DNA of 64,000 nt from an uncultured Nitrososphaerota archaeon (GTDB lineage: Archaea; Thermoproteota; Nitrososphaeria; Nitrososphaerales; CADDZS01). Below are positions 15,252-38,258 of this stretch, in pieces. Each line of letters begins with the position of its first letter. Position 1 is the stretch's first letter. The notes under the pieces were generated by a model. The model ran no database searches, had not been told where the DNA came from, and saw only the letters and a list, made by a program, of their open reading frames with translations. The stretch is taken from assembly GCA_963799845.1 (NCBI GenBank), contig CAWCYI010000004.1:1760001-1824000 (forward strand), given 5' to 3'. A program made the translations under genes and the position numbers.

Positions 15252-15257
15252 GGTGCT

Positions 15258-18349: not shown

Positions 18350-18496
18350 TCGCCAACTGAATTCTCAAATAGGCTTGGTCTTTTAATTGGTTCGATGAAA
18401 CAGTGACTTTTCAGGTCTGCAGGTACAAAACTACCTGAAATAATCTTCGTTAGTAGTAGTGTAACTGTGAGATTGTGAAAACAGACTTCTTTGCTT

Positions 18497-18598
18497 ACAA
18501 TAGCATTAGAAATAACCAGAAGAGCTAGAAACGAGCTCTCCGGTACGCAGGATTGCGCCCCCGTAGAACAGGGCGAAAATGGCATAATAAATCAATGA
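18497..18598 (+). repeat. ~100-bp dispersed element, copy 2
   Basis: matches reverse complement of 12935-13038; hairpins AGAGCT/AGCTCT, CGCA/TGCG, GCCC/GGGC. Confidence 0.85.
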
Positions 18599-18739
18599 TC
18601 GTGAAACAAATGGCCAAGAGAGCTGGAGGGTACACGAGGAGGTCGTGGACCTGCCGGAAATTCGATGGCGAAGATCTCGCAGGGTATCTTGGAGCCGGGC
18701 ACACTGTAACCTGCTTCAGAGTTTGGAAAATGATTTTTC

Positions 18740-18949
18740 TTACTGCTTTCCAGCGGCTTCAAAAACAACTTGCCTTCCTTCAGATTCTGAGATTCTGACG
18801 TAGCACCGCTTTACATATTTCACGCCTGACTTCTGTGTCCGCCGGGGGTGCCGGAATACACGATAACGAAGTGTGCCGTTCTCATTTCGCATGATTTGAA
18901 CCACGCTCTCCCGTGCAATTTTGCCGCATCTTGGGCATACTAGATCCAA
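18740..18949 (-). CDS. small basic zinc-finger protein (CxxC...H...C)
   Basis: CPRCG...YRVFRH...KRCYV; Lys/Arg rich. Confidence 0.55.
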   Translation of the reverse strand: MDLVCPRCGKIARESVVQIMRNENGTLRYRVFRHPRRTQKSGVKYVKRCYVRISESEGRQVVFEAAGKQ

Positions 18950-19111
18950 TTAGGTCAAATCTTCTCCAATGAGGTGGGACAGAGTTGTCGTCAGAAGACA
19001 GGGATTGGTGTAATAAAAACTCCTGAAGCCCTATTGGCTGGATAAATTTCAAAACCCTGACGTCAAGACTATATTCTTATGTTGCAACTTTTTTTCGTTA
19101 ATTAGCGCCGA

Positions 19112-20242
19112 ATGAAGATTTCCAGGACATTAGACGAAGCTGACCTAGAGGATCTGGTGATTGGTGCCACAATCCTATCATCCGGAGGAGGAGGCTCGGT
19201 TGAGAACGCGTTTAGGATAATAAGGAAAATATCGGAAAAAGGGCTTGCACCGCACCTTGTTGACCCTGCCGGATTACCCGCAAAGGCTCTCGTTTTTGCT
19301 CCCGGCGATGTTGGTGGAGGGATAACGTCGGAAGAAGAAAAAAGGTTTGAGAGGGTCTACAAAACGAAGATCCCGATAAAGTGGAAACGGTGGCCGTGGG
19401 ATAAATGGTCGTCCGCATCAATAGCGGAACTTGCCAAATATCTGGGCCGGGAACCTGACGCGTTTCTGGCGATGGAAGCAGGTCCCGGTTCTTTTCTCAG
19501 CGTGATCTTCGAAGCAGCCGAAAGCGGAAAGCCGACGATCGATGGTGATACTGTCGGACGCGCGGTTCCTGAGATGACGATGTCGAAACTTTTTCTCAAT
19601 AATACGAGAGTTCTCGCCTCGGCTTCGACATCGCACTTTGGAGATATTATCATCTTGAAACAGATCCCCAATTTCAGGAGAATGGAAGATATCGTCAGGT
19701 CGTTCGCGAGTGCCTCGGGAGGAGGTGTGGGACTAGTTTCTGCGTTCGAAGGATCTACTGTCAGCAGAGGGACGATACCAAATTCAATTTCGCGATGCAT
19801 CAAGCTCGGTAGAGAGGTACGGACTTCTCCGATGAAGGACCTGTTGAAGACTGTCCTAGAAGAGACACGTGGAAAGATCCTATTTGTCGGGAAAGTGGAT
19901 AAAGTGGAATCCGAGCCCAGGCTCGGATATCTATTCGGGTCTTATTTGATGACCGGCACCGGCGAATATCGAGGGGCCAAGCTCAAAATCTGGTTCAAGA
20001 ACGAGAACCACGTAGCTTGGAAGAACGGGAGGCCGGTTGCCACATCTCCTGACACGATTACAATTTTTGATCCTGAGAAAAGACAGGGAATGTGGAATTG
20101 GGACGTGGTTCCAAGAGACAGGGAGTTAATTGTACTCGGAATACCTGCGGATAATATTTGGAAAACAAAAAGGGGTCTCGAAGTTCTGGGCCCCAGAGCT
20201 TTCGGTTTTGATATTGAGTACAGGCCGGTTCGCGCCGGCTAA
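19112..20242 (+). CDS. DUF917 family (S-methyl-thiohydantoin desulfurase-like) protein 1
   Basis: GATILSSGGGG, DGDTVGRAVPE, WFKNENH, ATSPD, VLGPRAFG. Confidence 0.85.
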   Translation: MKISRTLDEADLEDLVIGATILSSGGGGSVENAFRIIRKISEKGLAPHLVDPAGLPAKALVFAPGDVGGGITSEEEKRFERVYKTKIPIKWKRWPWDKWSSASIAELAKYLGREPDAFLAMEAGPGSFLSVIFEAAESGKPTIDGDTVGRAVPEMTMSKLFLNNTRVLASASTSHFGDIIILKQIPNFRRMEDIVRSFASASGGGVGLVSAFEGSTVSRGTIPNSISRCIKLGREVRTSPMKDLLKTVLEETRGKILFVGKVDKVESEPRLGYLFGSYLMTGTGEYRGAKLKIWFKNENHVAWKNGRPVATSPDTITIFDPEKRQGMWNWDVVPRDRELIVLGIPADNIWKTKRGLEVLGPRAFGFDIEYRPVRAG

Positions 20243-21081
20243 TAGCGCAGGTCCTTCATGAAATCTTCTATCGCTTGTGTGATGTTCTTCGCGGCTCCCT
20301 CTATCATGTTCTTTCCCCATTCCCTGTTTGCCTTGGTCGCATCTCCGAGAATTCCGGATGAAGTAACATCCTTGAACGTCCTGAATGTGGACGTGTAGAA
20401 GCCCTCCGACATCTTGATCGCTTCAGAAGCCTGGGGCATCTCCCGTTTCGCCCTTTCGATTTTGACCTGATCCGGTCTCAGATAGAGAGTCCAGGAAGTC
20501 TCCTGCGCGTTAGCGTGAAAGCCATCGTCGAAACTGATTCCCTTGCCGAGCTCCTTCGGGATAAAGTCCCACCAGTTGAAACCGATAACCTTCTTTGGAG
20601 AGAGCTCGTTTCTCGATTCGGCCGTGGCTATTGACAGCGCTGCCGTATTGCCTCCGTGGCCGTTGATGAAGATTACAGGATCAAAACCGTGGGAGGTGAG
20701 AGACCGCGCATAGTCCTTGACTACTGCGATGAACGTCTGTGCCTGCAGTGTAATGGTTCCGGGAAAAGGCATGTGGTGTGCGGACACGCCGGGTCGGAGT
20801 GGTGGCGCTACGACGCACCCCAGCTGCATTGCTACCAAGATGGACACCTCAAGAGGTGCAACGACATCTGAATAAAGTGGTAGATGTGGACCATGCTGCT
20901 CGATCGAACCGGTGGGTACTAGAATCGTCTTGGTCTGTTTCAGCAATTCCTGAACATCAGGCCATGTCATTTCTTCCAGAAAGATTGAATTTGGCAATTT
21001 TATTGTGCTACCTTTGGGTTCTAAGATCAGAGTGCACTCTATTAAATTTCTGGAAAGACATTCCCCTTTATAGGAGAGCAA
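20239..21081 (-). CDS. creatininase / creatinine amidohydrolase family protein
   Basis: PTGSIEQHGPHLP, HMPFPGT, INGHGGN, HANAQETS, SGILGD. Confidence 0.9.
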   Translation of the reverse strand: MLSYKGECLSRNLIECTLILEPKGSTIKLPNSIFLEEMTWPDVQELLKQTKTILVPTGSIEQHGPHLPLYSDVVAPLEVSILVAMQLGCVVAPPLRPGVSAHHMPFPGTITLQAQTFIAVVKDYARSLTSHGFDPVIFINGHGGNTAALSIATAESRNELSPKKVIGFNWWDFIPKELGKGISFDDGFHANAQETSWTLYLRPDQVKIERAKREMPQASEAIKMSEGFYTSTFRTFKDVTSSGILGDATKANREWGKNMIEGAAKNITQAIEDFMKDLRY

Positions 21082-21222
21082 GGTTTCTTACTCTCAGAAT
21101 TTAAGCCTGAATTTCTCGAGGAAAATTTGTATGACCAGTCTGCAAATGCACAAGGCGTGTCCAAAAAGTCACGATATCACTCAATGATTATATTTTTCGG
21201 AGAATCTCAGGTATAGAGCACG

Positions 21223-22281
21223 TTGAGTAAGAGAGGCTACACCGACTACCATGAGAGGATACCGCCGGGATGGCGTATAGCTCCAGTCGATCGCTGGCCG
21301 ATCAACAATCACGATTCGGGTCAAACGCCAAATTTCGATGTAGGAAAGTGGAGGTTCAGGACGTATGGTGAAGTAGAAAACCCACTCGACATAACGTATG
21401 AAGAATTCCGGAATCTTCCGCATATTACAAAGACGCTTGACCATCACTGCATCGATGGTTGGAGTTATCTCGGTCAGGTGTGGAACGGCGTCGACATTTC
21501 CGTCATAAAGGAAAAGACAAAAGTCCGGAAAAGTGCTTGCTACATTTTGGTTGAGAGTAGCCAAGGTCTGAGCCAGACGTTTCCAATAGGCCAGGATCTC
21601 TTGCTTGCGGATGGCCAGAATGGGTCAGTCCTGCCGAGACCCGCCGGGTATCCGCTGCGGATAGTGGCTCCAGGAGAATTCGGAATGAAAAGCACGAAGT
21701 GGGTTGAGAAGATCAAGTTTTGCAGCGAGCGGGAAGTCGATGCACTGGATAGGATGGTCATGCAGAACGGCCTGTACGAATTGTACTCCGAGAAATTGAG
21801 TGACTTCAATCCATGGACTGTCGATAATAAAGAGAGAAAGAAATTTCTCTGCAAGAATTTCGCCGCTGGAGTCGAGGCGGTGAGGTTTAAGAAAAAGCAG
21901 GAATTTCTCGACAGTAACGATGCGATCTCTTCAGAAACTTTTGCACTTTGCAAGCTAGGCGACCTAAAGGAGAATGCAGGTTCAAAGTTTGTAATTAACG
22001 GAAACGAGATTCTTGTGGTAAAGTCAGGGAACTTGATCTACGGGGTAGAGCCAATTTGTCCTCACCTTGGTTCAGATTTGTCTCGCGGAAGGGTCAACTG
22101 CGATGCCAAAACCGTCAAATGTCCCTTGCATGGCGCGGTGTTTGATATTGCTAGTGGGACATGCCTAAGCGGCAGCTATGGATGCGACGGCGATACTTTT
22201 CCTCCAATCCGAACTTACCGGATAAAGGTAGAATCTGATACCGTATTCCTTGAAAGAAATCAGGAATGGGGAACGATTTAG
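21223..22281 (+). CDS. sulfite-oxidase-family molybdopterin-binding domain fused to C-terminal Rieske [2Fe-2S] domain
   Basis: HHCIDGWS (Mo Cys), GYPLRIVAPG..GMKSTKW; CPHLG...CPLHGAVFD. Confidence 0.85.
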   Translation: MSKRGYTDYHERIPPGWRIAPVDRWPINNHDSGQTPNFDVGKWRFRTYGEVENPLDITYEEFRNLPHITKTLDHHCIDGWSYLGQVWNGVDISVIKEKTKVRKSACYILVESSQGLSQTFPIGQDLLLADGQNGSVLPRPAGYPLRIVAPGEFGMKSTKWVEKIKFCSEREVDALDRMVMQNGLYELYSEKLSDFNPWTVDNKERKKFLCKNFAAGVEAVRFKKKQEFLDSNDAISSETFALCKLGDLKENAGSKFVINGNEILVVKSGNLIYGVEPICPHLGSDLSRGRVNCDAKTVKCPLHGAVFDIASGTCLSGSYGCDGDTFPPIRTYRIKVESDTVFLERNQEWGTI

Positions 22282-23352
22282 GACAGGTTGAACGCGCTGG
22301 GACTGACAAGCTTTATGAGCTTCCTCAGACAGCCACTTCTCCGCGACCGGGATCTTGAAGACCTTGCAACGATTGCCGTACCTCAACTGATCTGTCGTTA
22401 TTGGAAGAAGAGATTCTAGATCGTGGATTGAAATTATCTGGGGCGTGGCGACGATCGTCTCTTCATTCTGCTCGAGTATGCGCTTGGCAATCAGAAACTC
22501 GTTCTGGAACAAGATCTTGAGTTTCTGGTCGCGATAGTGATCAATCCCTTCTATCAAAACATGGCCGATCGCAAAGCCCCTGAGATTGAATCTCTTCAGG
22601 TCAGTCACCTTCCCAACGAAGATTTCCTTCGCCCCGCATGAGTCGATCAGCGATTGCTCTGCTTCCTTGTTTTTCATCCCTTCGAGAAGCGATTCCCCGA
22701 TGTTTAGGGCGAGGCTGAGCGTGTTGGGGATTGCACTTTTTCTGTATCCAGCGCCATTCATTGGATGGCTGGCTACGCATCCTCGTCCACCCATCGCGAC
22801 GGTTATGGATCTGGCGAGCTTTTCTGTCCATGAATCGGAAAGACCGTTTATGATGACCTCGTTACCCTTCTCGTCGGAAATGCACATCGGGCTTGCTCTC
22901 TGGCCGTAAGCGTTGAAAGTTGTCATCTGAAGCTCGGGAAAAGCTCTTCCTTCTCCATCGCCATCGATTACGGGCAGCTTCACGTAGACCGCATTTATGA
23001 AGGGGACCAGCGAGTTGATCCCTCCGATTTCTGCGGGAGAAAGGTGCGTCGCATTTCTCCCGATGATCTTTTCAAGACTTCTGGTCGACCTCGCATACTC
23101 GGTTCCCGCGGGAATCTTTTCAACGCCGATCGTGGGCGATCCCATGCCGGCAATGCAGAAAGAAAAATGTGAATCATCGATTTCATCGAAAGGCGTAACC
23201 TCCAGCTCCTCGACTTGGAATCTTTCCATCGCTGATTTTAGAAGAAGCGCGCCAAGGTACGGATTTCCGCCCCCTCCTGACCCGAGGACAGCGCTGCCAA
23301 GCGCGAGAGAGTCAATGTTTGATTTTCTGAATTTCCTGAGCTCAGATCTCAT
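22278..23352 (-). CDS. DUF917 family protein 2 (frameshift near 22313)
   Basis: LGSGGGGNP, EIGGINS, DGDGEGRAFPELQM, FQNEF; removing one A gives HKLVSPSAFNLS* ending at 22278. Confidence 0.85.
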
Positions 23353-23469
23353 GCAGTAGTCATGATTCCTTCAGACTAAGTCTACCTTTGAAGGACGCCT
23401 GACCATAAGAAAGAAGAAAGTGTATCCTTCCTTATGATTGGGAGGATAGATTGAGGTGTCCTTCGGAGC

Positions 23470-25188
23470 CTATGATTTGTAATACACGTTGTACAGACCG
23501 TACTCAAAGCTGGGACCCAGGGAATAGGTGTACCCGCCGACGTGCGGGGACAACGCCACGAAGTACGGGGCAATGTCCAGGTATACATCCACGTAATTCT
23601 GAGTGATGTCTGTCTGGAGCTGGTAGAAGTACTGCTGTCTCTGGGCGTCGTTTATTGTTGTCCTCTCCTGTGTAAGAAGGCTATCTACAGTTGAGTTGCT
23701 GAACCACTCCATGGAAATCCACGTGCCGTGAGCTGAAGATGAATACGGGGAGTAGAGCAACGAATCAACATCTGGATAGAAAGGCAGGAATTCGATGATT
23801 GTAAAGTCAGGCGTCGAAGTAACATTCGCTGCAATCTGAGTGACGGTAAGGAACGTTTGGGGCTGGATGTTTACCGTGACGCCGATCTGCCCCAGATCCT
23901 TCTGGAATTCCTCGGCTATCTGTTGTTCCTGAATGCTGCCCTGGACATACACTATAGTAAGAGCTTGAGCACCCGGGTTGACTCCTGAACTAGTAATCGC
24001 CGCTTTGGCTGCGCTAATGTTTTGTGAAAGTGGCTTTACAGCCGAGTTATAGTCCTTGTAGGATTGCGGAACAGGACCGGCGAGCTGGACACCGCCAGGG
24101 AAAATATAGGGCAGTGACGAGTAATTGAAAGCTAGCGCGACTGCCTTTCTGAAAAGGGTGCTATTCAGCGGGGCCTTCTGGGTATTCATCTTGATCATGT
24201 AGAAGGTCGCGGTCGAATAGTTCATGAATTGCCAGCCCAAAGACGAGTGTAGAGACTGGTATGTCGAGAGCTGAAGATAATCACTCACCCAGTCCAACGA
24301 GCCTTCTTTGGCAAGAGACAATACGGTGGCATCGGAAGTCACAATCGTGTAAGTGACTGTATTGTACGGGTGCGGGTTACTGGACCATCCCAGCCAATAT
24401 CCGGAGAATCTATCGATGGTAAGGGAAACTCCAGGTTGGTAGTTTCCGAGCATGTAAGGCCCAGATCCTGCTTCGTGGTTGTTCAGCCAGCCAGCTCCCC
24501 AGTCACCCATCGGGTTGCTCGATGAGGAATTTGCCAGGTGCTGCATTACGGTTTGCTGGTCTACGATGAAGAAAAGAGAAAGCGTGCTCACAAACGGGGC
24601 GTAGACTGTTTCGGTTTGCATCTGGACCGCCGAAGAATTCAGAGCTTTGATTCCGGAAGAGTTCAATATTCCTATCCAGAATGAAGCAGAACCCTCGCCG
24701 ATTGCAAGCATCCGCTGCATCGAGAAAACCACGTCGCTCGCATTTAGGATGTTCCCGCTGTGGAACTTGATGCCCTGATTAAGAATGAAAGTATACGTCT
24801 TGCCGTCGGATGCTGCGGTCCAGCTGCTGGCGACGTGCGGAATGATCGTCGAATTCGGAGCCTGCGTTACGAGGTTATCATACATGTTGTACATGGCAAG
24901 ATCTTGGGTGTAATCATTTCCAACCGCTGGGTCGATGTTTCCAAAGTCCTGCTGAACCTGCACATTCAGCGTAGGAGTCGATGCGTTTGATGCGGTAGAT
25001 GAGGTCGTAGAAGTGGTTGAAACCACAGGTGAACTTGAAGTGGTAATCGTTGACGAGGTTGAAGTCGTAGATGTGGTCGTTGATTTGGTAGATAACGCGA
25101 GGATCCCAGCTCCAGCGATGATTATTATTATGACGACGACTACGACAATCAGAGCGACTCTGCTAATGGCATGTCTAAAATTCTTCAA
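23470..25188 (-). CDS. peptide/nickel ABC transporter substrate-binding protein (family 5)
   Basis: class III-like signal peptide, Ser/Thr linker, IDPA, KFHSGNILNASDVVFS, GSGPY. Confidence 0.9.
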   Translation of the reverse strand: MKNFRHAISRVALIVVVVVIIIIIAGAGILALSTKSTTTSTTSTSSTITTSSSPVVSTTSTTSSTASNASTPTLNVQVQQDFGNIDPAVGNDYTQDLAMYNMYDNLVTQAPNSTIIPHVASSWTAASDGKTYTFILNQGIKFHSGNILNASDVVFSMQRMLAIGEGSASFWIGILNSSGIKALNSSAVQMQTETVYAPFVSTLSLFFIVDQQTVMQHLANSSSSNPMGDWGAGWLNNHEAGSGPYMLGNYQPGVSLTIDRFSGYWLGWSSNPHPYNTVTYTIVTSDATVLSLAKEGSLDWVSDYLQLSTYQSLHSSLGWQFMNYSTATFYMIKMNTQKAPLNSTLFRKAVALAFNYSSLPYIFPGGVQLAGPVPQSYKDYNSAVKPLSQNISAAKAAITSSGVNPGAQALTIVYVQGSIQEQQIAEEFQKDLGQIGVTVNIQPQTFLTVTQIAANVTSTPDFTIIEFLPFYPDVDSLLYSPYSSSAHGTWISMEWFSNSTVDSLLTQERTTINDAQRQQYFYQLQTDITQNYVDVYLDIAPYFVALSPHVGGYTYSLGPSFEYGLYNVYYKS

Positions 25189-25306
25189 AGTTGAAACTTT
25201 GAAGGTGGTAAGCGACTTAGCTCTTAAGCTTAGCGGAATTCGTTAATCGGAAAAAAACGAAATTCGCACGCTTAAATATTATCCAGTGGTAGTTGCCTCC
25301 CATTCA

Positions 25307-26323
25307 ATGCGGTTTTGGGAGTACGTTTTTCGCAGAGCAATGCTCGCGCTCTTGACTCTCGTAGGACTTTCTGTTGTCATTTTTTATTTGTCCAGAGTCC
25401 TCCCCGCTGATCCGGGCAGACTTGCGCTGGGGCCGTATGCGAGCGAGCAACAGGTGAAATTATACGATCACCAGCTCGGGCTTGACAAGCCGATCTACGA
25501 ACAATATTTTCTCTATCTCTGGAACTTTATTCACGGACAGTGGGGACAATCGATAATCACCCACAACAATGTGCTTGCTGACGTTGAATACTATTTTCCA
25601 TCAACCTTTGAACTGATCACAATTTCGATAATTCTCACAGCGCTCATTGGGATACCTCTGGGAATAGTCGCGGCGAGCCGCCGCGGAAAGGGATCGTCAG
25701 CAGTGATTAGATTACTCTGGATAATCGGAATTGCGATACCTCCGTTTGCGACCGGAATCGCTTTACAGTTGATCTTCGGCTATTATCTCGACCTCCTGCC
25801 GGTCGCGACCCAGATCAGCGGAGCTCTGCCGACGAGGATCACCGGAATGGTTTTGGTCGACAGCCTGCTCACACTTAACTGGCCAGCGTTCGTGAGCTCT
25901 TCCGCACATTTGATCCTTCCCGAGATCGCACTTTCCCTTACCGGCATCGGGCAGATCGCCCAGTTGACCTACGCTGGAGTTCTTGACGAAACTGGTGAGG
26001 ATTACTACACCGCCCTAATCGCATTCGGAGCAAAGTCTAGATCGCTCAACTTCAAGTATGCAATGAGATCCGCTCTTGTTCCTGTTTTGACAGTTCTTGG
26101 TCTGCTCTACGCTTCTCTGATAGCTTACGCGTTTCTGGTCGAAGATGTGTTCACCTGGGGCGGACTGTCCCAGTACGCGGTGACCGCCATGCAGACAAAG
26201 GATTTCAACGCGATTGTCGCGACCGTCCTCATAGTTGGCTTCTTCTACATCGTGCTTAATTTCCTCGTGGATATTGCCCTCGGATATGTTGATCCCAGAA
26301 TGAGATTGGATGGAGCAGAATGA
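25307..26323 (+). CDS. peptide ABC transporter permease (DppB/OppB-like)
   Basis: LPADP, LGLDKPIYEQY, HLILP, VEDVF, YVDPR. Confidence 0.9.
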   Translation: MRFWEYVFRRAMLALLTLVGLSVVIFYLSRVLPADPGRLALGPYASEQQVKLYDHQLGLDKPIYEQYFLYLWNFIHGQWGQSIITHNNVLADVEYYFPSTFELITISIILTALIGIPLGIVAASRRGKGSSAVIRLLWIIGIAIPPFATGIALQLIFGYYLDLLPVATQISGALPTRITGMVLVDSLLTLNWPAFVSSSAHLILPEIALSLTGIGQIAQLTYAGVLDETGEDYYTALIAFGAKSRSLNFKYAMRSALVPVLTVLGLLYASLIAYAFLVEDVFTWGGLSQYAVTAMQTKDFNAIVATVLIVGFFYIVLNFLVDIALGYVDPRMRLDGAE

Positions 26324-27207
26324 CCGAGACATTAACAAAACCGCCAAAAGGTGAGAGGTTCAAGGAACTCACAAACCAGCTTTACCGTTTGACGTATGAT
26401 CCGCTCGCGATAGGCGGCCTGGTAATCTTGGCAGGGATCATCTTCGTCGCGATCTTTGCTCCGTTCCTTACCCCATATGCAAATCAGGTGGGGCCTTACA
26501 CGAACTTTGCGGCGGAGTATATGCATCCGTCGTGGGCTCACTGGTTCGGGACGGACAATGTTGGAAAGGATATTTTCACCCAGGTTATCTTTGGTTTCAG
26601 AATTTCGCTTTCAATTGCGTTGGTAGTCCTCGTGGCGAGCGCCCCTGTTGGAATCGTGCTCGGCCTGGTCGCGGGGTACTACGAAGGATGGATAGGAGCG
26701 TTAATCCAAAGGGTCACCGAGATATTTCTGTCGCTGCCCGCCCTAATTTTCGCACTCGTAATCGCGGCCATCCTCGGTCCAAACCTTCAGGACGTAATAA
26801 TCGCCCTGATCAGCCTCTGGTGGAACTGGTATGCGAGGATAATGTATACCGTGACAAAATCACTCAAAAATCGCCCTTACGTGGAAGCAGCCAAAGTGCA
26901 GGGAGCCGGGCCCTTGCGAATAATGTTCAGGGAGATCCTTCCGAATGCGACATCGACCCTGACCGCGAAGATGATGCTCGATCTGGGCTTCATCATACTG
27001 ATAGAATCGGCCATGGGGTTCCTCGGGATTGGGGCACAGCCGCCAACGCCTGATCTTGGAGTGATGGTGGCCTCTGGGCTTCCATACCTCGCGACGTACT
27101 GGTGGATTTCGCTTTTCCCGAGTCTTGCTCTGACTGTCCTCGTCCTCTCCTTCAACTTAATCGGAATCGGGATAAGGGATCTCTTTGACGTGAAGGTGGT
27201 CGCCTAG
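26320..27207 (+). CDS. peptide ABC transporter permease (DppC/OppC-like)
   Basis: HWFGTDNVGKD, YVEAAKVQGA, ILPNA, FLGIGAQPPTPDLG. Confidence 0.92.
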   Translation: MTETLTKPPKGERFKELTNQLYRLTYDPLAIGGLVILAGIIFVAIFAPFLTPYANQVGPYTNFAAEYMHPSWAHWFGTDNVGKDIFTQVIFGFRISLSIALVVLVASAPVGIVLGLVAGYYEGWIGALIQRVTEIFLSLPALIFALVIAAILGPNLQDVIIALISLWWNWYARIMYTVTKSLKNRPYVEAAKVQGAGPLRIMFREILPNATSTLTAKMMLDLGFIILIESAMGFLGIGAQPPTPDLGVMVASGLPYLATYWWISLFPSLALTVLVLSFNLIGIGIRDLFDVKVVA

Positions 27208-28185
27208 ATGTCGCTGCTTGAAATTGACAAGCTGAATCTCAGCGTTACCGCCAATCGGATCAAGGTACCGATTTTAAGGAATGTAAGTATCAATGTGGAG
27301 AAGGCCGAGGTCGTAGCGATCGTGGGAGAAACCGGGAGTGGGAAGACGCTCACGGCGAAAGCGGTAATGGGCATTCTCCCCAAGAACTCCATCATCGATT
27401 CTGGGCATGCATTCTATGAGGGAGTCGACATACTTACTTCCTCATCTGAAGCCCGCAAGGCTCGAAAAAAGATCGCTATGGTATTCCAGAACCCGATGTC
27501 ATCCCTGAATCAACTTTTCAAGATAAAGGATCAGATGAGCGACGTTTTGAACTGGTCCGGCGTCGACAAATCGCAGATGACAAAGGAGACACGGATCGAC
27601 AAAATTATTTCGACTCTGGAACAGGTGAAATTAGGGCAAAACGCACTTGACATGTATCCCTTCCAGCTGAGCGGGGGGATGAGACAAAGGGTGATGATAG
27701 CGATGTCACTCTTGCGCGAGCCAGATCTCCTGATAGCAGATGAACCAACAACTGCGCTCGACGTTACAACGCAGAGGGAGATACTGAACCTGCTCCAGGA
27801 GCTCGCTGGCAAGAACAAGATGAGCCTCTTGCTCATCACGCACAATTTGGGAATCGCTTTTGAGACTGCCGAGCGGACCTACGTATTCTACGCCGGAAGG
27901 GTCGTGGAAGAGGGCACAACCTCATCCTTGTTTCGGAACCCTCTGCATCCATACACCCGAGGCCTCATTGATTCGATCCCGTCTCTGGACAGGTCCAGGG
28001 CGATGGAGGGAATTCGAGGAGAGATTTCTCAGGACGACAGGAGCACCGAATCGTGCTGCTTCAACAGGAGATGTCCAATCGCGATTGAGATCTGCACGAA
28101 GGAAGAGCCGCAGCTGGAAGAACTGGAGTCGCGACACCGAGTGGCGTGCTTTGTGGCGAGTCAGAGGGCGAGGCGAACGAAGTGA
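27208..28185 (+). CDS. peptide ABC transporter ATP-binding protein (DppD-like)
   Basis: GETGSGKT, LSGGMRQR, DEPTTALD, HPYT, C-terminal Cys cluster. Confidence 0.93.
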   Translation: MSLLEIDKLNLSVTANRIKVPILRNVSINVEKAEVVAIVGETGSGKTLTAKAVMGILPKNSIIDSGHAFYEGVDILTSSSEARKARKKIAMVFQNPMSSLNQLFKIKDQMSDVLNWSGVDKSQMTKETRIDKIISTLEQVKLGQNALDMYPFQLSGGMRQRVMIAMSLLREPDLLIADEPTTALDVTTQREILNLLQELAGKNKMSLLLITHNLGIAFETAERTYVFYAGRVVEEGTTSSLFRNPLHPYTRGLIDSIPSLDRSRAMEGIRGEISQDDRSTESCCFNRRCPIAIEICTKEEPQLEELESRHRVACFVASQRARRTK

Positions 28186-29139
28186 AACAAATTTTTGAAG
28201 TAGACCAGGTCTCCAAGACGTTTGAGCTTCGAACCGGCTTGACGCGAAAGAAGGTGGGAGAAGTTAGGGCAGTTGACAATGTCTCATTCAGTGTCGGTCG
28301 GGGAGAGACGCTCGGAATCATCGGCGAAACTGGATCTGGCAAGACGACGATAGCGAAGATGCTGTTGCTACTCGTTAGACCTGATTCGGGGAAGATACTC
28401 TTCGAGGATCGCGATATCTCCTCATTTTCCAAGTCAGAGGAGAAAGATTACAGGAAGAAGGTTCAAACCGTGTTCCAGGACCCGACTTCGTCTCTCAATC
28501 CGAGGCACAATGTGAAGACGATCATCGAATCTCCGCTCAAGATTCATCACGAGGAATTCAAGAAGCGAATCCCCGACCTGTTGAAACTCGTCAATCTAGA
28601 CGAATCTTACGAGTACAGATATCCGCATACACTGAGCGGGGGAGAGAAACAGCGCGTAGCTGATCGCCCGTGCCCTGGCTTTAAACCCTGAGGTTATCAT
28701 CCTGGACGAACCTACTTCCGCACTTGACGTATCCGTACAGGCAAAGATAATTGCTCTGTTGAAAAGCTTCAAAGAAAAGCTCGATATCACCTATCTCTTT
28801 ATCTCGCATGACCTGAGTCTCGTCGCGAACTTTTGCGATCGAACTCTGGTTGTTTACAACGGAAAAATGTGCGAGATGGGAAAAACTTCGGAGATTTTCA
28901 AAAATCCGATCCATCCGTACACCGAACTCTTGCTTTCTTCTGTCCCAGTCGTCAGCGAGTCGGAGGAAAACATGAAGCCGAAGGACGTGCCAATCCAAAC
29001 GAATTCAAGATCCGTCAGATACACAGACGGCTGCGTTTTTCGCGACAAGTGCTGGTTGAAGCAGAGCATCTGCGAGACGCGGGTGCCGGAGTTCAGGGAG
29101 GTTTCCCAGGATCACTGGGTCGCCTGCCACGTGAGGTGA
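28182..29139 (+). CDS. peptide ABC transporter ATP-binding protein (DppF-like); frameshift near 28661
   Basis: GETGSGKT, LSGGEKQRV, then IARALALNPEVIILDEPT in the next frame; HPYT, VACH. Confidence 0.9.
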
Positions 29140-29145
29140 AATGCG

Positions 29146-29478
29146 ATGACTTCTGACGACGATGAAAACGGTGAACACAAATCGAGGTCTTCGATCGGAG
29201 CTTCGCGGTTCTTTGTCTGGTACGGAAATAGAAGGAGACGAGGGATGCTTGACGATGCAAGACTGTCGTTCAGGGATTATCTCGTGAAAATTGGATTAAT
29301 TTTTGCGTTCATGCTGCTCGACCTGATTTTCTTTCCTTCCTTGGTTCAGATTTTAATCCCGATCTCCACCGATTTCTACGTAGCGTGGGCGGCCGGCGGA
29401 TTGTTGCTGGTATTTGTCGAAAAAAAGATGCTCGACAGAATCTTGCCGCCGCGGAAAATACCTACGAGCAATCAGTGA
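29146..29478 (+). CDS. hypothetical 2-TM membrane protein
   Basis: two hydrophobic helices; co-oriented inside the dpp-DUF917 operon. Confidence 0.6.
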   Translation: MTSDDDENGEHKSRSSIGASRFFVWYGNRRRRGMLDDARLSFRDYLVKIGLIFAFMLLDLIFFPSLVQILIPISTDFYVAWAAGGLLLVFVEKKMLDRILPPRKIPTSNQ

Positions 29479-29537
29479 ATTAATTTCTCACGAGTGTTGG
29501 AAGATTTAATAGCTGAAAATCCGTTCGAGGCTAATTC

Positions 29538-30616
29538 ATGAAGATTACCGCGCAGGAAATCGAGGATATTGCCATTGGTGCCGCAGTCCTCGGAACCGGA
29601 GGTGGAGGAGATCCATTCATCGGGAAGCTGCTTGCGCTCGACGCAGTGGCAAGGTATGGTTCAGTTGAATTAATCCAGCCGGAAGAAGTACCAGACGAAG
29701 GGCTCGTGGTACCATCCGCGGGGATTGGAGCTCCCACTGTGTTGGTAGAGAAAATTCCGAACGGAGAAGAGGGGCTGGCTGCCCTCAGGATTCTCGAGGA
29801 CAAGATCCACAAAAAGCTGTCGCGATTACGCCGATTGAGCAGGGCGGACTGAACTCGGAAATCCCAATTTCTGTTGCGGCGAAGACCAGGCTCCCCCTGA
29901 CGGACTGCGACGGGATAGGAAGAGCCTTCCCCGAGCTCCAGATGTGCTCGTTCAGCCTCGACGGAATTCCTGCAAATCCAATGGTACTCGCCGACGAGAA
30001 AGGAAATGTGGTACTCCTTGAAACGATAGACAACTTGTGGACTGAGAGATTCGCACGAAGTACTGTTGTCCAGATGGGCGGATCTGCGCTCAGTGTTGCT
30101 TATCCTATGACGGGTGCGCAGCTGAAAAAATCGTGCATAAAGGGGACTGTTTCACTCTCGCTGAGGCTGGGCGAAGTGACCCGTTTTGCGAGAGAAAAGG
30201 GCGAAAATCCTCTCCACGACATTGCAAAGATACTCAGGAGCAAAATATTGTTCAAGGGAAAGTTGGTCGATATTTTCAGGAGGACGACGGGCGGTTTTGC
30301 AAGGGGCGAGGCACTCTTTCAGGGATTGGATGAATTTGACGGAGAATCCCTGAGGATCAAGTTCCAGAACGAGAACCTGATCGCCATGCGAAATGAGAAG
30401 AAGGTTGTAGCGACGGTACCGGACTTGATCTCTGTTCTCGATGTGGAGACAGGCATCGCGATCACAACTGAAGAGCTAAGATACGGAAATCGTGTCGTCA
30501 TCATAGGTTCGCCCTGCAACGAAAGATGGAGGACGCCCAAGGGCATCACCGTCGCGGGTCCGAGGTATTTCGGTTATGATGTTGACTATGTTCCCGTGGA
30601 GGAGCTGAGCGCTTAG
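29538..30616 (+). CDS. DUF917 family protein 3 (frameshift in A-run near 29815)
   Basis: LGTGGGGDP, GAPTVLVEK; shifted frame IEQGGLNS, DGIGRAFPELQM, FQNENL, GPRYFG. Confidence 0.88.
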
Positions 30617-30617
30617 T

Positions 30618-32204
30618 ATGCCGTACAGAATTGGAATCGACGTTGGTGGCACGCACACCGACGCGGTTATACTCGACGAGAACGACAAGCTCATCTGGGC
30701 CGAGAAAGTTGACACAACGGAGGACGTATCGACAGGGATCAATCAGGCCCTGGAAAGGGTTCTAAAGAATAGCTCGGTTGATCGGAAGAAAATCATCGCG
30801 GTAATGTTCGGGACGACCCACTGCACGAATGCCGTTGTTGAAAGAAAAAATCTCACGCACGTCGGTCTCCTGCGCATCGGAAAGCCTGCGACTCTGGGAA
30901 TTTCGCCACTATTCTCCCTGCCCAAAGATCTTCGATTGGCCATCGGAGATACCTGGTCTATAGTCTCGGGGGGGCATGAGTTCGACGGAAGAGAAATCTG
31001 GGCGTTTGATGAAAAAGCCACCCGAGAGGCGGCGGAGGACTTTAGGTCCCGCGGCGTCGAATCTGTTGCGATAGTGTCGGTCTTCTCTCCGGTCAATTCC
31101 ATTCATGAGGAGCGAGCCCAAAAGATATTCGCCGAGGTCATGGGCCCCACAGTTCCGCTAACTCTTTCCCACGAAATTGGAAGCATCGGTCTGTTGGAGC
31201 GCGAAAACGCCTCGGCCCTCAACGCCGCCCTAATGAAAGTCGCGCAAAAAGCAATTTCAGGATTCGTGAGCGCGGTGAATGAATCTGGGCTGTCCTCTGC
31301 GAAGATCTATCTTACGCAGAACGATGGGACGCTGATGTCGGTTGATTATGCCCGAAAGTACCCGGTCAAGACAATCGCGTCAGGTCCCACAAATAGCATG
31401 AGGGGCGCGGCATTTCTCACGGGGATCTCTGATGGAGTAATCGTTGACATTGGCGGTACGACTGCGCTCGTCGGAGCTATCATGCACGGTTTCCCGAGGG
31501 AATCCAACATTGCTGTCGAAATTGGAGGGGCCAGGACCAATTTCAGGATGCCCGATTTAATTGCGATAAGCTGCGGCGGCGGGACGGTCGTAAAATATGA
31601 TCAGAATGCCGTGCAGATAGGTCCAGAAAGCGTGGGGTTTCGGATAACCAGAGAGAGCGTTGCATGGGGCGGAAAAACCTTGACCACGACCGACGTGAGC
31701 TTGGGACTAGGTTATTCCAAAGTCGACGACCCTACATCTGTCGCGGAGAGAGTCGGGAATTCGTTTAGCAAGCAACTGCTTGAGCGAGCGCGTGACAGGA
31801 TAATCGCGATCATAGAAGATTCGATTGACAGGATGAAGACATCCGCAGATCCGGTGGAGGTTGTACTGGTAGGCGGAGGTGGAATCATTGTTCCGGAGGA
31901 TTACTATGGAAAGTTCAAGGGAGTATCGAGGGTCGTGAGACCGTCGCATTTCCAGTATGCGAACGCGATAGGAGCAGCTATCGCGCAGGCAAGCGGAGAG
32001 GTGGACAGGATCTATGAGTTGGACAAGATGACTCGGGAGCAGGCCTTAGAGAAAGCAAAGCAGGAGGCGATCCAGGATTCGATTAATGCAGGAGCGGAAC
32101 CCTCGACCGTGAGCATTGTCGAGGCTGAAGAGTTGCCCTTATCATACTTGCCGGGGCTGGCGCTCAGAATTAGGGCAAAGGCGGTTGGGAAACTCAGGAT
32201 CTAA
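30618..32204 (+). CDS. hydantoinase/oxoprolinase family protein (HyuA-like ATP-binding subunit)
   Basis: IGIDVGGTHTD, GLLERENA, SGPTNSMRGA, DIGGT, GGGT, ANAIGAA. Confidence 0.92.
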   Translation: MPYRIGIDVGGTHTDAVILDENDKLIWAEKVDTTEDVSTGINQALERVLKNSSVDRKKIIAVMFGTTHCTNAVVERKNLTHVGLLRIGKPATLGISPLFSLPKDLRLAIGDTWSIVSGGHEFDGREIWAFDEKATREAAEDFRSRGVESVAIVSVFSPVNSIHEERAQKIFAEVMGPTVPLTLSHEIGSIGLLERENASALNAALMKVAQKAISGFVSAVNESGLSSAKIYLTQNDGTLMSVDYARKYPVKTIASGPTNSMRGAAFLTGISDGVIVDIGGTTALVGAIMHGFPRESNIAVEIGGARTNFRMPDLIAISCGGGTVVKYDQNAVQIGPESVGFRITRESVAWGGKTLTTTDVSLGLGYSKVDDPTSVAERVGNSFSKQLLERARDRIIAIIEDSIDRMKTSADPVEVVLVGGGGIIVPEDYYGKFKGVSRVVRPSHFQYANAIGAAIAQASGEVDRIYELDKMTREQALEKAKQEAIQDSINAGAEPSTVSIVEAEELPLSYLPGLALRIRAKAVGKLRI

Positions 32205-32354
32205 TTATGACATGCTTGCTGATGATAAGTAAATCAGCAGTTAGACATGCTTCTTTTCAACGTACATCTCATACATACACCTCGAAAAATTGGGAGCTTC
32301 AGAATTTCTCTAAATAACTGGAGAATTGGGCTGAGAAATATCCAGCAATCTTAA

Positions 32355-32390
32355 ATGTCTATTACGTCTATTATGCCTATTATGCCTACT
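32355..32390 (+). repeat. four tandem imperfect 9-bp repeats over the antitoxin start
   Basis: ATGTCTATT ACGTCTATT ATGCCTATT ATGCCTACT. Confidence 0.6.
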
Positions 32391-32610
32391 AGTAAGGTCA
32401 ACAGGAACTACCAAGTCACGATTCCGAAGGATGTACGGCGAAAGGCAAAGATAGACATCGGCGACACCGTTTTGGTAGAGTACGATCAAAATGAGAATAC
32501 AGTAAAACTGACCCCGCCGAAACGAGGAAGTAGAAAGTCATGGAAGTCTTGGTACGAAGCTTACCGTTGAAGATATCGAGTCCGGCATCGAAAGGGGGCA
32601 GTCAGACTGA
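32382..32610 (+). CDS. vapB: AbrB/MazE-type antitoxin (frameshift near 32547)
   Basis: SKVNRNYQVTIPKDVR..IDIGD; shifted frame LTVEDIESGIERG stops at 32610, just before the PIN gene. Confidence 0.8.
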
Positions 32611-32615
32611 CAGAA

Positions 32616-33011
32616 GTGGTTGTTGACACAAATGTCCTGATCTTCGACACGTTTGAGGACAGCGACTTTCATGAAGAGGCTTCTAATGGATTAGATTCGC
32701 TATCAAAGTGGAATCTCCCTTCAATCGTGTTCCATGAACTCGTATGGTTTTTCAAATCCCGTGAAATTGATCGTAGCAGAGCAAAATTGAAGATTGAAGA
32801 GTTTCTGACTAACGAGAAGACAATATTCTTTCAATGCACTGCAGATGATGTGAGATTTTCGATCGCGCGAATGAACAACTATAGGAATTACAATGATTAC
32901 CTAATTCTTTCAGTGGCAAGAAGGCTCGAACTACCCCTGTACACCTTCGACCGCGAGCTCAAGAAAGTAGCTGCAAAGTCTGGCGTGAAGATTTACAAAG
33001 GTCTTGAATAG
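32616..33011 (+). CDS. vapC: PIN-domain VapC toxin
   Basis: VVDTNV, VFHE, YNDYLI, YTFD. Confidence 0.88.
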   Translation: MVVDTNVLIFDTFEDSDFHEEASNGLDSLSKWNLPSIVFHELVWFFKSREIDRSRAKLKIEEFLTNEKTIFFQCTADDVRFSIARMNNYRNYNDYLILSVARRLELPLYTFDRELKKVAAKSGVKIYKGLE

Positions 33012-33023
33012 ATCGAAGGAGAT

Positions 33024-33236
33024 TTGGAAGATTTAGCTTCACTCAAGTATGATACCCAGGCCAAAGCTTTCTACGTGAAAATCAGAAAAGGGAAAGTAGC
33101 TCAAACCGAGCCACTTAGCGATTGCATCTTTCTAGACCTGGACGCCAAAGGAAAGCTCGTTGGCATGGAAGTTATTCTCCACAAAGATTTACCGGAAGAT
33201 ATGACTAGAAAAATAAGCGCGGCTGCTGCCCTTTAG
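33024..33236 (+). CDS. DUF2283 domain protein
   Basis: YDTQAKAFYV...IFLDLDAKGKLVGMEV. Confidence 0.8.
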   Translation: MEDLASLKYDTQAKAFYVKIRKGKVAQTEPLSDCIFLDLDAKGKLVGMEVILHKDLPEDMTRKISAAAAL

Positions 33237-33331
33237 AGCTTTTAACAGGTTTCCACACTTATTATCCAACATGCAGACCCGGGACGGCTAAATCTTTATG
33301 TTCAGATTTTTTTCGACCTTTGCTGCAATAA

Positions 33332-33910
33332 ATGAAAATAGACAATAATCAAGACGACCCTGACCTTACGAAGAAACTAGATTTCTTCTTCGAGGTAGTC
33401 AGGAAAAGAAGGGCGTGCAGGCACTTTGATTCTACTCCGATTCCACGGGAGATTCTTGACAAGATATTGTATGCGGCCCACAGGGCACCGACGGGAGGAA
33501 ACATACCATACAGGTTTGTAATTCTGGTAGATGACCCTGTTCAACTGAAGTTGCTGAAGATGGTCTCGCCTGGACTCCTGGGTAACGCGATGGCTGCACT
33601 CGTCATATGCACGAACGCTAGGATAGCCGAAGAGAGCGGAAACCTGGCTATCGAAATGTCGCGCGTTGATGCGGGAGCAGCAGCTGAAAATGCCGTGCTT
33701 GCGACTTACGCATTGGGGCTCGGGGCGTCTTTTATCAAGTCTTACTCGGAAGCGGCTGTCCGTAGAGTTCTGGAGATTCCCGATCATTGTAGGACGGAAA
33801 TCGTTGTGTCGCTTGGTTTTCCATCAAAGGACGAGCCTCCGCCGATCAAGAAGGGAAAGGCGGGGAAGATTACATACCTGAATTTCTACGGGAATGAAAA
33901 GGGGAGTTAG
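33332..33910 (+). CDS. nitroreductase family protein, cyclodipeptide oxidase A subunit (AlbA)-like
   Basis: RRACRHF, APTGGN, SPGLLG, ENAVLATYALGLG, LEIPDH, terminal FYGN; adjacent to AlbB-like gene. Confidence 0.85.
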   Translation: MKIDNNQDDPDLTKKLDFFFEVVRKRRACRHFDSTPIPREILDKILYAAHRAPTGGNIPYRFVILVDDPVQLKLLKMVSPGLLGNAMAALVICTNARIAEESGNLAIEMSRVDAGAAAENAVLATYALGLGASFIKSYSEAAVRRVLEIPDHCRTEIVVSLGFPSKDEPPPIKKGKAGKITYLNFYGNEKGS

Positions 33911-33911
33911 A

Positions 33912-34244
33912 ATGCCGGACAAAATTTCAAAGAGTACTGATAGACTTGAAGATGGTCTGTTTGAGCTGGCGTTATTTCTTCTAATTTCGGCTAGAGGTTG
34001 CGTGGATGAGCCACGCATCTATGGATCGTTTCGGCTCATGGATGCGCTCAGCAGGCTTTGTGAAGTTTATTCGAAGTCTGACAAGCTTGAGCCAGACGAG
34101 TTTCTTTCCAAATTAAAAGAACAGGTGGACAGGGACAAGTACAAGAGCATTCAATCCGAAGAGGCGTTCATCAAGAGCATGGATGATCTGGTGGTAAAGT
34201 TCACGGATGAGCTCAAGAGGAGATACGGCTCTTCTTCGAAATAG
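33912..34244 (+). CDS. DUF6092 family protein, cyclodipeptide oxidase B subunit (AlbB)-like
   Basis: LALFLLISARGCVDEPRIYGSFRLMDALSR; GGGGAG just upstream of ATG 33912. Confidence 0.75.
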   Translation: MPDKISKSTDRLEDGLFELALFLLISARGCVDEPRIYGSFRLMDALSRLCEVYSKSDKLEPDEFLSKLKEQVDRDKYKSIQSEEAFIKSMDDLVVKFTDELKRRYGSSSK

Positions 34245-34387: not shown

Positions 34388-34705
34388 ATGATTTCTGGAA
34401 ATTTTTTGAAATTCACGGGATTGCTCGAGCCCGCAGTAGAGGGTGGATTTATCTTAAAGTGCTTCGAACTCCCTGTCGCTACTGAAGGGGAAACAAAAGA
34501 AGAAGCTCTTGCGAATCTGAAAGAGGCAATCGAGGGATATATCGAAGTAAGGGCTGAGTTGCTGGGTAAATCCAAAACAAAGATGAAGAGAGAATTGGTG
34601 GAAATTACAGATGATTTAATCTTACATGCAGTCGGAGCGGGCAAGTCCGGAGAACGAAAAAATGCCCTTAAGGATTTGGAAAGATTGGAATCGATCGACT
34701 TTTGA
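34388..34705 (+). CDS. hicB: HicB family antitoxin (orphan)
   Basis: ELPVATEGETKEEALANLKEAIEGY. Confidence 0.75.
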   Translation: MISGNFLKFTGLLEPAVEGGFILKCFELPVATEGETKEEALANLKEAIEGYIEVRAELLGKSKTKMKRELVEITDDLILHAVGAGKSGERKNALKDLERLESIDF

Positions 34706-34761
34706 ATAATTAGGAGGATGAAAAACTAATCTGGAGAGCCCTTGTGAAAATCTGTACCAAA

Positions 34762-38243: not shown

Positions 38244-38258
38244 AAAGCCTACTCGCCA

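Follow-up and report, generated by a model that had tools for sequence, protein, structure and literature searches.

Several described systems lie close to a gene cluster at positions 19112-34244 of a 64,000-nucleotide stretch of DNA (hereafter the window) from an uncultured soil archaeon of the Nitrososphaerota (assembly GCA_963799845.1, contig CAWCYI010000004.1). In this cluster a short form of the ATPase HyuA is encoded together with DUF917 proteins, a peptide-type ATP-binding cassette (ABC) importer and a pair of proteins resembling the subunits of a cyclodipeptide oxidase (CDO). Classical hyu clusters hold an NCS1 permease, a hydantoinase, a racemase and a carbamoylase; NCS1 permeases are carriers of hydantoins, allantoin and nucleobases. 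The named relatives of DUF917 are desulfurases, which replace sulfur and do not open rings. Cyclic dipeptides, or diketopiperazines, are abundant natural products that act as signals and also arise as by-products of heat and of peptide decay.

For the ATP-dependent caprolactamase, parts of the original report propose a mechanism in which the substrate, in its lactim form, is phosphorylated by CapA and then passes through a tunnel to CapB, where hydrolysis takes place at an Asp-His-Asp-His metal site (PMC8453981). Clusters of the type analysed here have already been described bioinformatically. Passages of Andreas et al. (Nat Commun 2024, PMC11055893) report that clusters around CDOs not associated with a cyclodipeptide synthase (CDPS) are enriched in DUF917, hydantoin racemases, AroM, peptide ABC transporters and peptidases; in them DUF917 is labelled a probable hydantoinase, and the clusters are interpreted as "hydantoin or allantoin modification". 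According to the same passages, cyclic dipeptides are the only substrates shown for CDO enzymes, and AlbAB is a biosynthetic tailoring enzyme in Streptomyces. Part of a 2013 survey describes diketopiperazine rings as stable to the peptidases tested (PMC3852281). In the literature that we searched, we found neither a gene for a diketopiperazine hydrolase nor a paper describing the chemistry of DUF917.

On balance, comparison of the sequences favours reading the core of the cluster as an importer-fed, ATP-dependent system for opening cyclic amides, with cyclic dipeptides as the favoured substrate. The evidence that carries this reading is the constant association of the short HyuA with DUF917, together with the recurrence of peptide-type importers and CDO-like pairs beside them.

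Gene content and the short HyuA-DUF917 pair

The named genes were located by a Pfam search of the window. A first-pass annotation of this DNA had listed three DUF917 genes, a hyuA, a creatininase, a fusion of molybdenum-cofactor and Rieske domains (Moco-Rieske), a peptide ABC importer and a CDO-like pair; each was recovered in its place by Pfam, and HyuA and the CDO-like pair also match solved structures. The core is formed by two divergent operons. To the left, on the minus strand, lies the gene for a family-5 solute-binding protein of the Dpp/Opp/Nik type (SBP_bac_5, 23470-25188; PF00496, 212 bits), followed downstream by DUF917_2 (22165-23352). To the right, on the plus strand, a series of genes extends from 25286 to 34244 in the order dppB-dppC-dppD-dppF-orf110-DUF917_3-hyuA-vapB-PIN-DUF2283-albA-albB, of which the section from dppB to hyuA makes up the second operon. 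The permeases are encoded at 25286-26323 (dppB) and 26320-27207 (dppC), and the ATPases, both with oligo_HPY tails, at 27208-28185 (dppD) and 28146-29139 (dppF). With this binding protein, both permeases and both oligo_HPY-containing ATPases, every component of a Dpp/Opp importer is encoded here. DUF917_3 (29538-30616) ends 1 nt short of the start of the short hyuA (30618-32204), which encodes an ASKHA-type ATPase of 528 aa with Hydant_A_N and Hydantoinase_A domains.

In the window sequence, dppF and DUF917_3 are each split over two frames, and the Pfam N and C domains of DUF917_3 are read in different frames. Short-read contigs from four soil-metagenome runs of one study, which may include the window's own source sample, were aligned to 28100-30700. 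The base at 28662 in dppF is missing from the contigs of all four runs, and an extra A stands behind 29810, in an A-run of DUF917_3, in the only run that covers the site; each of these differences restores the frame. A third indel relative to the short-read contigs, at 29515, is intergenic, making three in 2.6 kb. The breaks in dppF and DUF917_3 are therefore assembly indels and both genes are intact, which rules out reading them as pseudogenes. Since single-base indels are numerous in this assembly, the ends of open reading frames (ORFs) in the window are not reliable. Within the window, frames are likewise split in a luciferase-like gene (15258-16303), in a gene resembling iron-containing alcohol dehydrogenase (region 13346-16303) and in a gene with M24 and Creatinase_N domains (40468-41563). 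Elsewhere in the assembly the same is seen in two of five HyuB genes, in a fourth DUF917 gene (locus L039) and in a binding-protein gene that is spread over three frames (locus L034). DUF917_2 extends about 30 aa further at its C-terminus than its nearest relatives do, so the 117-nt overlap of this gene with the Moco-Rieske gene may also be an indel artefact.

An alignment of short HyuAs was scanned against one genome per species, which yielded 79 loci. The archaeal ones belong to Pyrodictiaceae, Caldivirga, Methanomethylicales, Desulfurococcales, Thermoplasmata and Nitrososphaerota, the bacterial ones to at least nine phyla, among them Bacillota, Chloroflexota, Acidobacteriota, Binatota, Actinomycetota, Pseudomonadota and Gemmatimonadota. 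A DUF917 gene adjoins the short hyuA in 78 of the 79: in 75 it lies on the same strand with a gap of at most 350 nt, in two on the same strand at 1.3-1.7 kb, and in one it is divergent. The sole remaining locus stops at a contig end and cannot be assessed. We also used a sample of 401 genomes of the window's phylum, in which match scores separate the short HyuA from the long forms in a sharply bimodal distribution. All 20 full-length short HyuA genes found there (in 16 other genomes) have a DUF917 C-domain encoded directly upstream. Both domains are joined in a single chain in 115 of the 120 best longer homologues, whose hosts include Branchiostoma, echinoderms, molluscs, cnidarians, Trichoplax, many fungi, amoebae and algae. 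Public annotations ("DUF917 family protein/N-methylhydantoinase A...") and domain architectures show the association as well.

Six of the cross-phylum loci, out of 79, do contain HyuB, but each time it follows a long HyuA of its own and is never the direct partner of the short form. The archaeon's own genome (86.7% complete) contains five HyuB loci, each directly beside its own long HyuA, and the HyuA of the window is the only one in the genome without a HyuB. The first-pass annotation had stated that a B subunit is lacking, which is true of the locus and untrue of the genome; the cognate hyuB that it had considered as a possible true partner was not found, every hyuB detected in the genome having its own hyuA. 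Given the adjacency and the fusions, the comparisons support its further proposal that DUF917, and not HyuB, is the fixed partner of the short HyuA. An AlphaFold2 model of the Trichoplax fusion, based on 45 fusion sequences, has a mean pLDDT (predicted local distance difference test) of 88 and a pTM (predicted template modelling score) of 0.90, with low confidence only in the linker (533-562); indirectly, this model favours a defined interface, and the two separate proteins of the window would be expected to form a complex. With its occurrence in archaea and many bacterial phyla, and in fused form in animals, fungi and protists, the short HyuA-DUF917 module ranks among the more widespread enzyme modules to which no reaction has been assigned.

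Three of the 120 longer homologues are joined to an NCS1 permease (P0002, P0005, P0029) and two to a family-5 binding protein (P0001, P0019). If they are real and not run-on gene calls, these fusions would be a direct link between the ATPase and uptake. In a metagenome-assembled genome (MAG) of a proteobacterium, an open frame of 2724 aa (L108:9929-18103) matches both HyuA and DUF917, and could be a giant fusion, a run-on or the product of an odd genetic code.

The short HyuA covers only positions 1-174 of the 291-position Hydantoinase_A profile in Pfam, which returned no match to Hydant_A_C. Its residues 2-370 match the solved A subunits of N-methylhydantoinase and caprolactamase, and its best solved matches are lactam-opening enzymes. 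The phosphate-binding motifs DxGGTxTD and DxGGT, as defined in part of the caprolactamase paper (PMC8453981), are invariant in 47 short HyuAs including that of the window; the invariant columns are D9, G11, T13, T15 and D16, and D276, G278 and G279.

In the reading that we favour, the Dpp/Opp-type importer would take up a small, peptide-derived cyclic amide, and the short HyuA would use ATP to activate the amide carbonyl, giving a phospho-lactim as proposed for CapA and OplA. DUF917, which is not homologous to HyuB, would take the role of the metal-dependent HyuB or CapB and bring water to the activated carbon, with opening of the ring. The AlbA/AlbB-like flavoenzyme encoded downstream would probably carry out a dehydrogenation between C-alpha and C-beta on the same ring system. 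The likeliest substrates would be 2,5-diketopiperazines, leaving dipeptides or dehydrodipeptides to ordinary peptidases. If this is true, the principle of the ATP-dependent lactamase also runs with a second subunit of a completely different fold.

The oxidase-like pair, the importer and the DUF917 copies

The nitroreductase of the window (33332-33910, plus strand) matches the solved AlbA 8uc3_A with an E-value of 4.4e-16, a generic nitroreductase (3g14_A) scoring slightly higher. The DUF6092 protein encoded next to it (33894-34244, plus strand) matches solved AlbB chains (9exv_C, E 5.1e-6; 8uc3_D, E 7.6e-4). A nitroreductase-fold A subunit and a small AlbB-type subunit are thus co-encoded as in a CDO, their genes overlapping by 17 nt. 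In a pairwise HMMER alignment to 8uc3_A only, two of the arginines that contact the phosphate of flavin mononucleotide (FMN) are kept (R24 and R28 in AlbA numbering) and the third, R175, is replaced by Lys. C115, to which FMN is covalently bound in AlbA, is aligned with Asp; most non-CDPS CDOs lack this cysteine, according to part of PMC11055893.

DUF6092 was detected in 31 genomes of the 401-genome phylum sample, and the 30 loci of the other genomes were all fetched. Seven of these have a DUF917 gene no more than 10 kb from the AlbAB-like pair. The order (DUF917-HyuA-)AlbA-AlbB-DUF917-HyuA-racemase-ABC transporter, with abutting genes, is common to four genomes of a single family, so that AlbAB is sandwiched between DUF917-HyuA pairs or stands directly beside one. 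One complete genome has dppCDF-AroM-DUF1177-DUF917-HyuA-NCS1-small membrane protein-AlbA-AlbB, and two genomes of a third family have DUF917-AlbA-AlbB-NCS1, or these genes nearby, with an M29 peptidase. DUF917 is found in 22 of 30 genomes with DUF6092 versus 40 of 370 without it, and DUF6092 in nine of 16 genomes with a short HyuA; these counts are descriptive, related genomes not being independent. The first-pass annotation had made its proposal depend on DUF6092/nitroreductase pairs accompanying DUF917-HyuA in other genomes, and they do so in these loci, in agreement with parts of PMC11055893.

Between hyuA and albA lies a set of three small genes (32355-33236, plus strand), a small AbrB/MazE-type antitoxin gene directly upstream of a gene for a PIN-domain toxin, as in VapBC systems, followed by DUF2283. 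In the related locus L008 hyuA directly abuts albA with no toxin-antitoxin genes between them, and vapBC copies with 64-76% aa identity occur on unrelated contigs of genomes of the same family. For these two reasons the three genes are probably an inserted toxin-antitoxin module, as had been suspected at first pass.

The same genome has a second CDO-like locus (L034, G000:C6:984400-1004300, at 7951-19901). There, orf194, a gene for an Asp/Glu/hydantoin racemase, and AlbA-like and AlbB-like genes are convergent with a series long HyuA-HyuB-SBP-dppBCDF (SBP, solute-binding protein), and the binding protein is the nearest relative of that of the window. Comparison of the two loci indicates that the same types of importer and oxidase accompany either a canonical lactamase or its DUF917 version. 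In five loci from one family of the phylum (L018, L024, L025, L026 and L027), AlbA-like and AlbB-like parts are found in one ORF of 288-331 aa, which matches the fused CDO forms mentioned in part of PMC11055893.

Neither the importer nor its binding protein reaches an NCBIfam equivalog for any particular ligand. Among the fetched ORFs, the nearest relatives of the binding protein are those encoded beside AlbAB, DUF917 or HyuA-DUF917 in its own and other phyla, Bacillota and Actinomycetota included. Much more distant from it than these DUF917- or HyuA-linked proteins are the other two binding proteins of family 5 in the window.

All three DUF917 copies have the domains PF06032 and PF20906 above the gathering score, the third being read in two pieces. 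Their best scores against the NCBIfam desulfurase models are 49.5 bits for DUF917_1, 73.9 for DUF917_2 and 65.5 for the C-terminal piece of DUF917_3. With a range of 39-74 bits, the scores lie far below the equivalog cut-offs of 440 and 450 bits (NF058529, thiohydantoin desulfurase; NF058532, S-methyl thiohydantoin desulfurase), and none of the three is therefore one of the named desulfurases.

Phylogenies were calculated from 124 rows with FastTree and from 68 rows with IQ-TREE, DUF917_3 being represented only by the unaltered C-terminal part behind its frameshift. The three copies fall into three different clades. DUF917_3 groups with the HyuA-adjacent DUF917s (support 95 in FastTree, 88 in IQ-TREE). 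DUF917_2 shares a five-row clade (support 98-99) with DUF917s that stand second in DUF917-HyuA-DUF917 triads of three genomes from the phylum and a Thermoplasmata MAG (L119, L120, L121 and L065), and it may be a second subunit. DUF917_1 (19112-20242, plus strand; S-Me-THD-like N and C domains) forms a long branch within a clade of 12 rows (support 98), no member of which adjoins a short HyuA. The earlier suggestion that the paralogues broaden the substrate range of one lactamase is thus unlikely to apply to DUF917_1, judging from its placement in the trees. The fourth DUF917 gene of the genome (L039, G000:C6:708000-727900, at 7479-15188) heads a further dppBCDF operon, with an M20 peptidase gene upstream.

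Counter-evidence and alternative readings

Several observations, given here together with the alternatives that draw on them, weigh against the favoured reading. The literature searched contained no experimental work on any HyuA-DUF917 pair. One genome that is 85% complete (G212) has a C-terminal fragment of a short HyuA and no DUF917 match. The phylum sample holds 83 DUF917 genes, of which 60 do not adjoin a short HyuA; DUF917, whose named members are desulfurases, therefore appears able to act alone, without activation by ATP, and its chemistry in the window could differ.

It is possible, though we lean away from it, that the 15-kb span is not one system and that the unit consists only of SBP-DUF917_2 and dppBCDF-DUF917_3-hyuA, all other genes being independent. 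The AlbAB genes of the window are cut off from hyuA by the toxin-antitoxin module, and further toxin-antitoxin-like genes follow albB at 34388-35253 (a DUF7387/UPF0150-like small protein and a PIN_3 protein), so that genes of this kind bracket the pair on both sides. In the only same-genus relative with AlbAB (G403), the pair is found on a 3.3-kb contig with other neighbours and no preceding hyuA. AlbAB is present in none of the 79 cross-phylum HyuA-DUF917 loci, and for 23 of the 30 AlbAB loci of the phylum the fetched stretch, on contigs of which several are only 3-7 kb long, holds no DUF917. The rest of the window contains many unrelated amidases and peptidases and two more binding proteins.

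The left-hand genes also fit this alternative. The creatininase-family gene (20239-21081, minus strand; PF02633, 230 bits), which is convergent with DUF917_1, had been called a creatininase at first pass. The family assignment stands and the enzyme name does not: the protein scores 145.7 bits against the cut-off of 235 for the creatininase equivalog (TIGR04448, EC 3.5.2.10), and it is also below the equivalog cut-offs for MftE and IolN. Only one of the 73 loci in which a short HyuA is anchored, L059, has a homologue of this gene, directly after hyuA. The Moco-Rieske gene (Oxidored_molyb and Rieske domains; 21223-22281, plus strand), convergent with DUF917_2, has one weak partial match, which lies in L088, about 8.6 kb beyond the pair on its downstream side. 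Neither gene is matched in the remaining phylum loci that were fetched. That these two genes belong to the system, as had been assumed at first pass, is doubtful; they and DUF917_1, with its stand-alone clade, are probably separate neighbours.

Regarding the oxidase-like pair, other evidence runs the opposite way. AlbAB stands between DUF917-HyuA pairs or directly beside one in the four genomes of a single family, and two further families contribute three genomes that have it near DUF917; DUF6092 and DUF917 co-occur strongly at the level of genomes, and their enrichment has been reported in part of PMC11055893. In addition, the second AlbAB pair of the genome is beside a Dpp operon with an ATP-dependent lactamase.

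A different substrate is rather unlikely in our judgement: 5-substituted hydantoins or cyclic ureides, which HyuA-DUF917 would hydrolyse as an ATP-dependent hydantoinase to N-carbamoyl amino acids and which AlbAB would dehydrogenate. Neighbours were counted in the 73 loci, transporters within 6 kb. An NCS1 permease is the commonest neighbour (56 loci); a Dpp-type ABC system is found in seven, and both in one locus. The prevalence of NCS1 permeases would favour a hydantoin-type ring as much as a diketopiperazine, and the NCS1 and racemase links (the latter in nine loci, with Asp/Glu/hydantoin racemases recurring) fit either. Named members of the DUF917 family act, by their names, on thiohydantoins, and a CN_hydrolase is encoded in the window at 50037-51023. 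"Hydantoin or allantoin modification" is also how such clusters are read in the passages of PMC11055893 cited above.

To finish a hydantoin pathway a carbamoylase would be needed, but a carbamoylase-type CN_hydrolase is linked in only one of the 73 loci, as are an M24 peptidase and Amidohydro_3. Unsupervised clustering of 663 neighbouring ORFs showed which other families recur. Besides DUF917, HyuA and NCS1, these are above all regulators (TetR, sigma-54 activators, Lrp/AsnC), an ABC ATPase and racemases, followed by short-chain and zinc-type dehydrogenases and a TonB-dependent receptor (six loci each) and the M19 dipeptidase (five loci); archaeal loci add M29 and M20/M28 peptidases, AroM and DUF1177. 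No dedicated downstream enzyme was universally linked to HyuA-DUF917 in this clustering. Dipeptidases and peptide-type importers thus recur in place of the carbamoylase, the DUF917 proteins of the window score far below the thiohydantoin desulfurase cut-offs, and cyclic dipeptides are the only substrates shown for CDO enzymes (in the parts of PMC11055893 that treat them). We found no CDPS gene in the genome, at its 86.7% completeness, so an imported substrate is likelier than biosynthesis. On these four grounds (no recurrent carbamoylase, dipeptidases with peptide-type importers, a CDO-like enzyme, no CDPS), diketopiperazines would rank ahead of hydantoins, but not by much.

The reaction itself might be other than hydrolysis. 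HyuA-DUF917 would then use ATP to activate its substrate for the exchange of an amidine or thio group, or for carboxylation as in acetone and acetophenone carboxylases, which we regard as improbable. This view draws on the properties of DUF917. DUF917 as a distant homologue of HyuB was rejected by a profile-profile comparison, in which no similarity was detectable (hhalign probability 0.13%). An alignment of 46 DUF917 sequences has no invariant His or Cys, and a hydrolase site like the Asp-His-Asp-His metal site of CapB is therefore not evident. What is invariant is a GGGG motif together with E74, E104, N109, D128, R132, E173, R177, N281, E282 and D298 (numbering of the L035 orthologue), and these residues are largely kept in all three copies of the window and in the fusions. 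Six of them, E74, E104, D128, E173, E282 and D298, make up a conserved acidic cluster.

An AlphaFold2 model of this orthologue (L035:14239-15339; pLDDT 94) has a single strong fold match, the structural-genomics entry 2O3I (Foldseek E 1.8e-26; VIA Z 40.1, root-mean-square deviation 2.4 over 335 residues). The next matches have Z of at most 5.8 (5-5.8 for barrels of the VirB10-like and Mop-like kinds, 4.3-4.5 for domains resembling CbiG/CobE), and no solved hydantoinase or amidohydrolase is among the fold matches listed. The CbiG/CobE resemblance concerns residues ~55-200 of the model and the CbiG C-terminal/CobE domain (3by5, Z 4.5; 3eeq, Z 4.3; 2w6l, Z 4.3); it is the only enzyme-like lead for this fold and is too weak to use. 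A role other than hydrolysis would also suit the sulfur replacement attributed to the named relatives, the carboxylases that HyuA homologues are able to drive, and the lack of a universally linked downstream enzyme. Importers, racemases and peptidases as neighbours, however, point to the catabolism of an imported ring derived from amino acids, and the best solved matches of the ATPase open lactams.

A biosynthetic role, in which the cluster would produce or modify a cyclic dipeptide in the manner of the albonoursin genes and not degrade one, might be suggested by the tailoring function of AlbAB in Streptomyces (PMC11055893, in part); it is very improbable given that no CDPS was found in the genome, at 86.7% completeness, that a complete importer with binding protein and not an exporter is present, and that the covalent-FMN Cys of CDPS-linked AlbA is Asp here.

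The reading as an importer-fed, ATP-dependent ring-opening system can be extended. Tentatively, and with distinctly less confidence than in that reading, the short HyuA and DUF917 might together be the long-sought diketopiperazine hydrolase, an ATP-driven enzyme of two proteins that would range from archaea to marine animals and fungi. Archaea in which AlbAB is sandwiched between the pairs would then have a dedicated route, dehydrogenation and ring opening turning imported cyclic dipeptides into amino acids and 2-oxo acids. The locus and its relatives tie the module to the CDO family, the only enzymes known to be specific for cyclic dipeptides, and to peptide-type importers, and this leads to a short, testable list of substrates. 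The value of the locus lies in this list, in the parallel between HyuB and DUF917 within one genome, and in the sandwiched CDO pairs of its relatives.

Surrounding genes and comparison with described systems

A possible small protein with a hydrophobic stretch, orf110 (29146-29478, plus strand), is predicted as an ORF only. It has no Pfam or NCBIfam match, and as a conserved component it was rejected, no homologue being present in any fetched locus; it may not be a real gene, and we treat it as a neighbour and not as a part of the system. Beyond the cluster, a dense run of amide- and peptide-processing genes occupies 36564-54642 of the window: Amidohydro_3, a class-V aminotransferase, an M24 prolidase/creatinase-like protein, an S33-like hydrolase, two more family-5 binding proteins, Amidohydro_1, CN_hydrolase, an AstE/AspA-type deacylase and an aldehyde dehydrogenase.

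In archaeal DUF917 loci, a small hydrophobic protein of 120-140 aa without a Pfam match is encoded directly beside the NCS1 gene (L020:11738-12151, L036:8472-8873, L035:10866-11234, L119:7895-8284 and relatives). These proteins form at least three sequence groups and may be accessory subunits of the permease. A thermosome-like Cpn60/TCP-1 paralogue lies beyond the ABC genes that follow DUF917-HyuA in two Calditenuaceae-type genomes and one Thaumarchaeota MAG (L008:1778-3559, L021:1604-3436, L092:7216-8721).

Measured against the HyuA/HyuB, OplA/OplB and CapA/CapB (6YRA) enzymes and N-methylhydantoinase (7HK5), the short HyuA resembles the A subunit through its residues 2-370, and the two phosphate-binding motifs are conserved in it. 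As in HyuA/HyuB systems, its gene is tightly beside that of a second protein and beside an importer. In outline, the predicted enzyme therefore resembles HyuA/HyuB, and it departs from it in two features. A full-length A subunit has about 650-720 aa with the whole of Hydantoinase_A and Hydant_A_C, whereas the ATPase of the window is about 150-190 residues shorter; and no HyuB (PF02538) is encoded in the window, the partner DUF917 having a different fold and lacking a His-based metal site.

With the classical hyu clusters the module shares, in its relatives, the company of NCS1 permeases and Asp/Glu/hydantoin racemases. Unlike them, it has no dihydropyrimidinase-type hydantoinase and next to no linked carbamoylase, and in the window a peptide-type ABC importer takes the place of NCS1.

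To the DUF917/S-Me-THD-like family the proteins of the window belong by both of their domains, the orthologue model superposing on 2O3I as given above. The non-CDPS CDO clusters of Andreas et al. likewise combine an AlbA/AlbB-like pair, DUF917 and a dipeptide/oligopeptide ABC importer, here seen in an archaeon. Compared with the clusters as presented in the available parts of that paper (PMC11055893), which do not mention an obligate short-HyuA partner, the unit in the window includes the ATPase as well.

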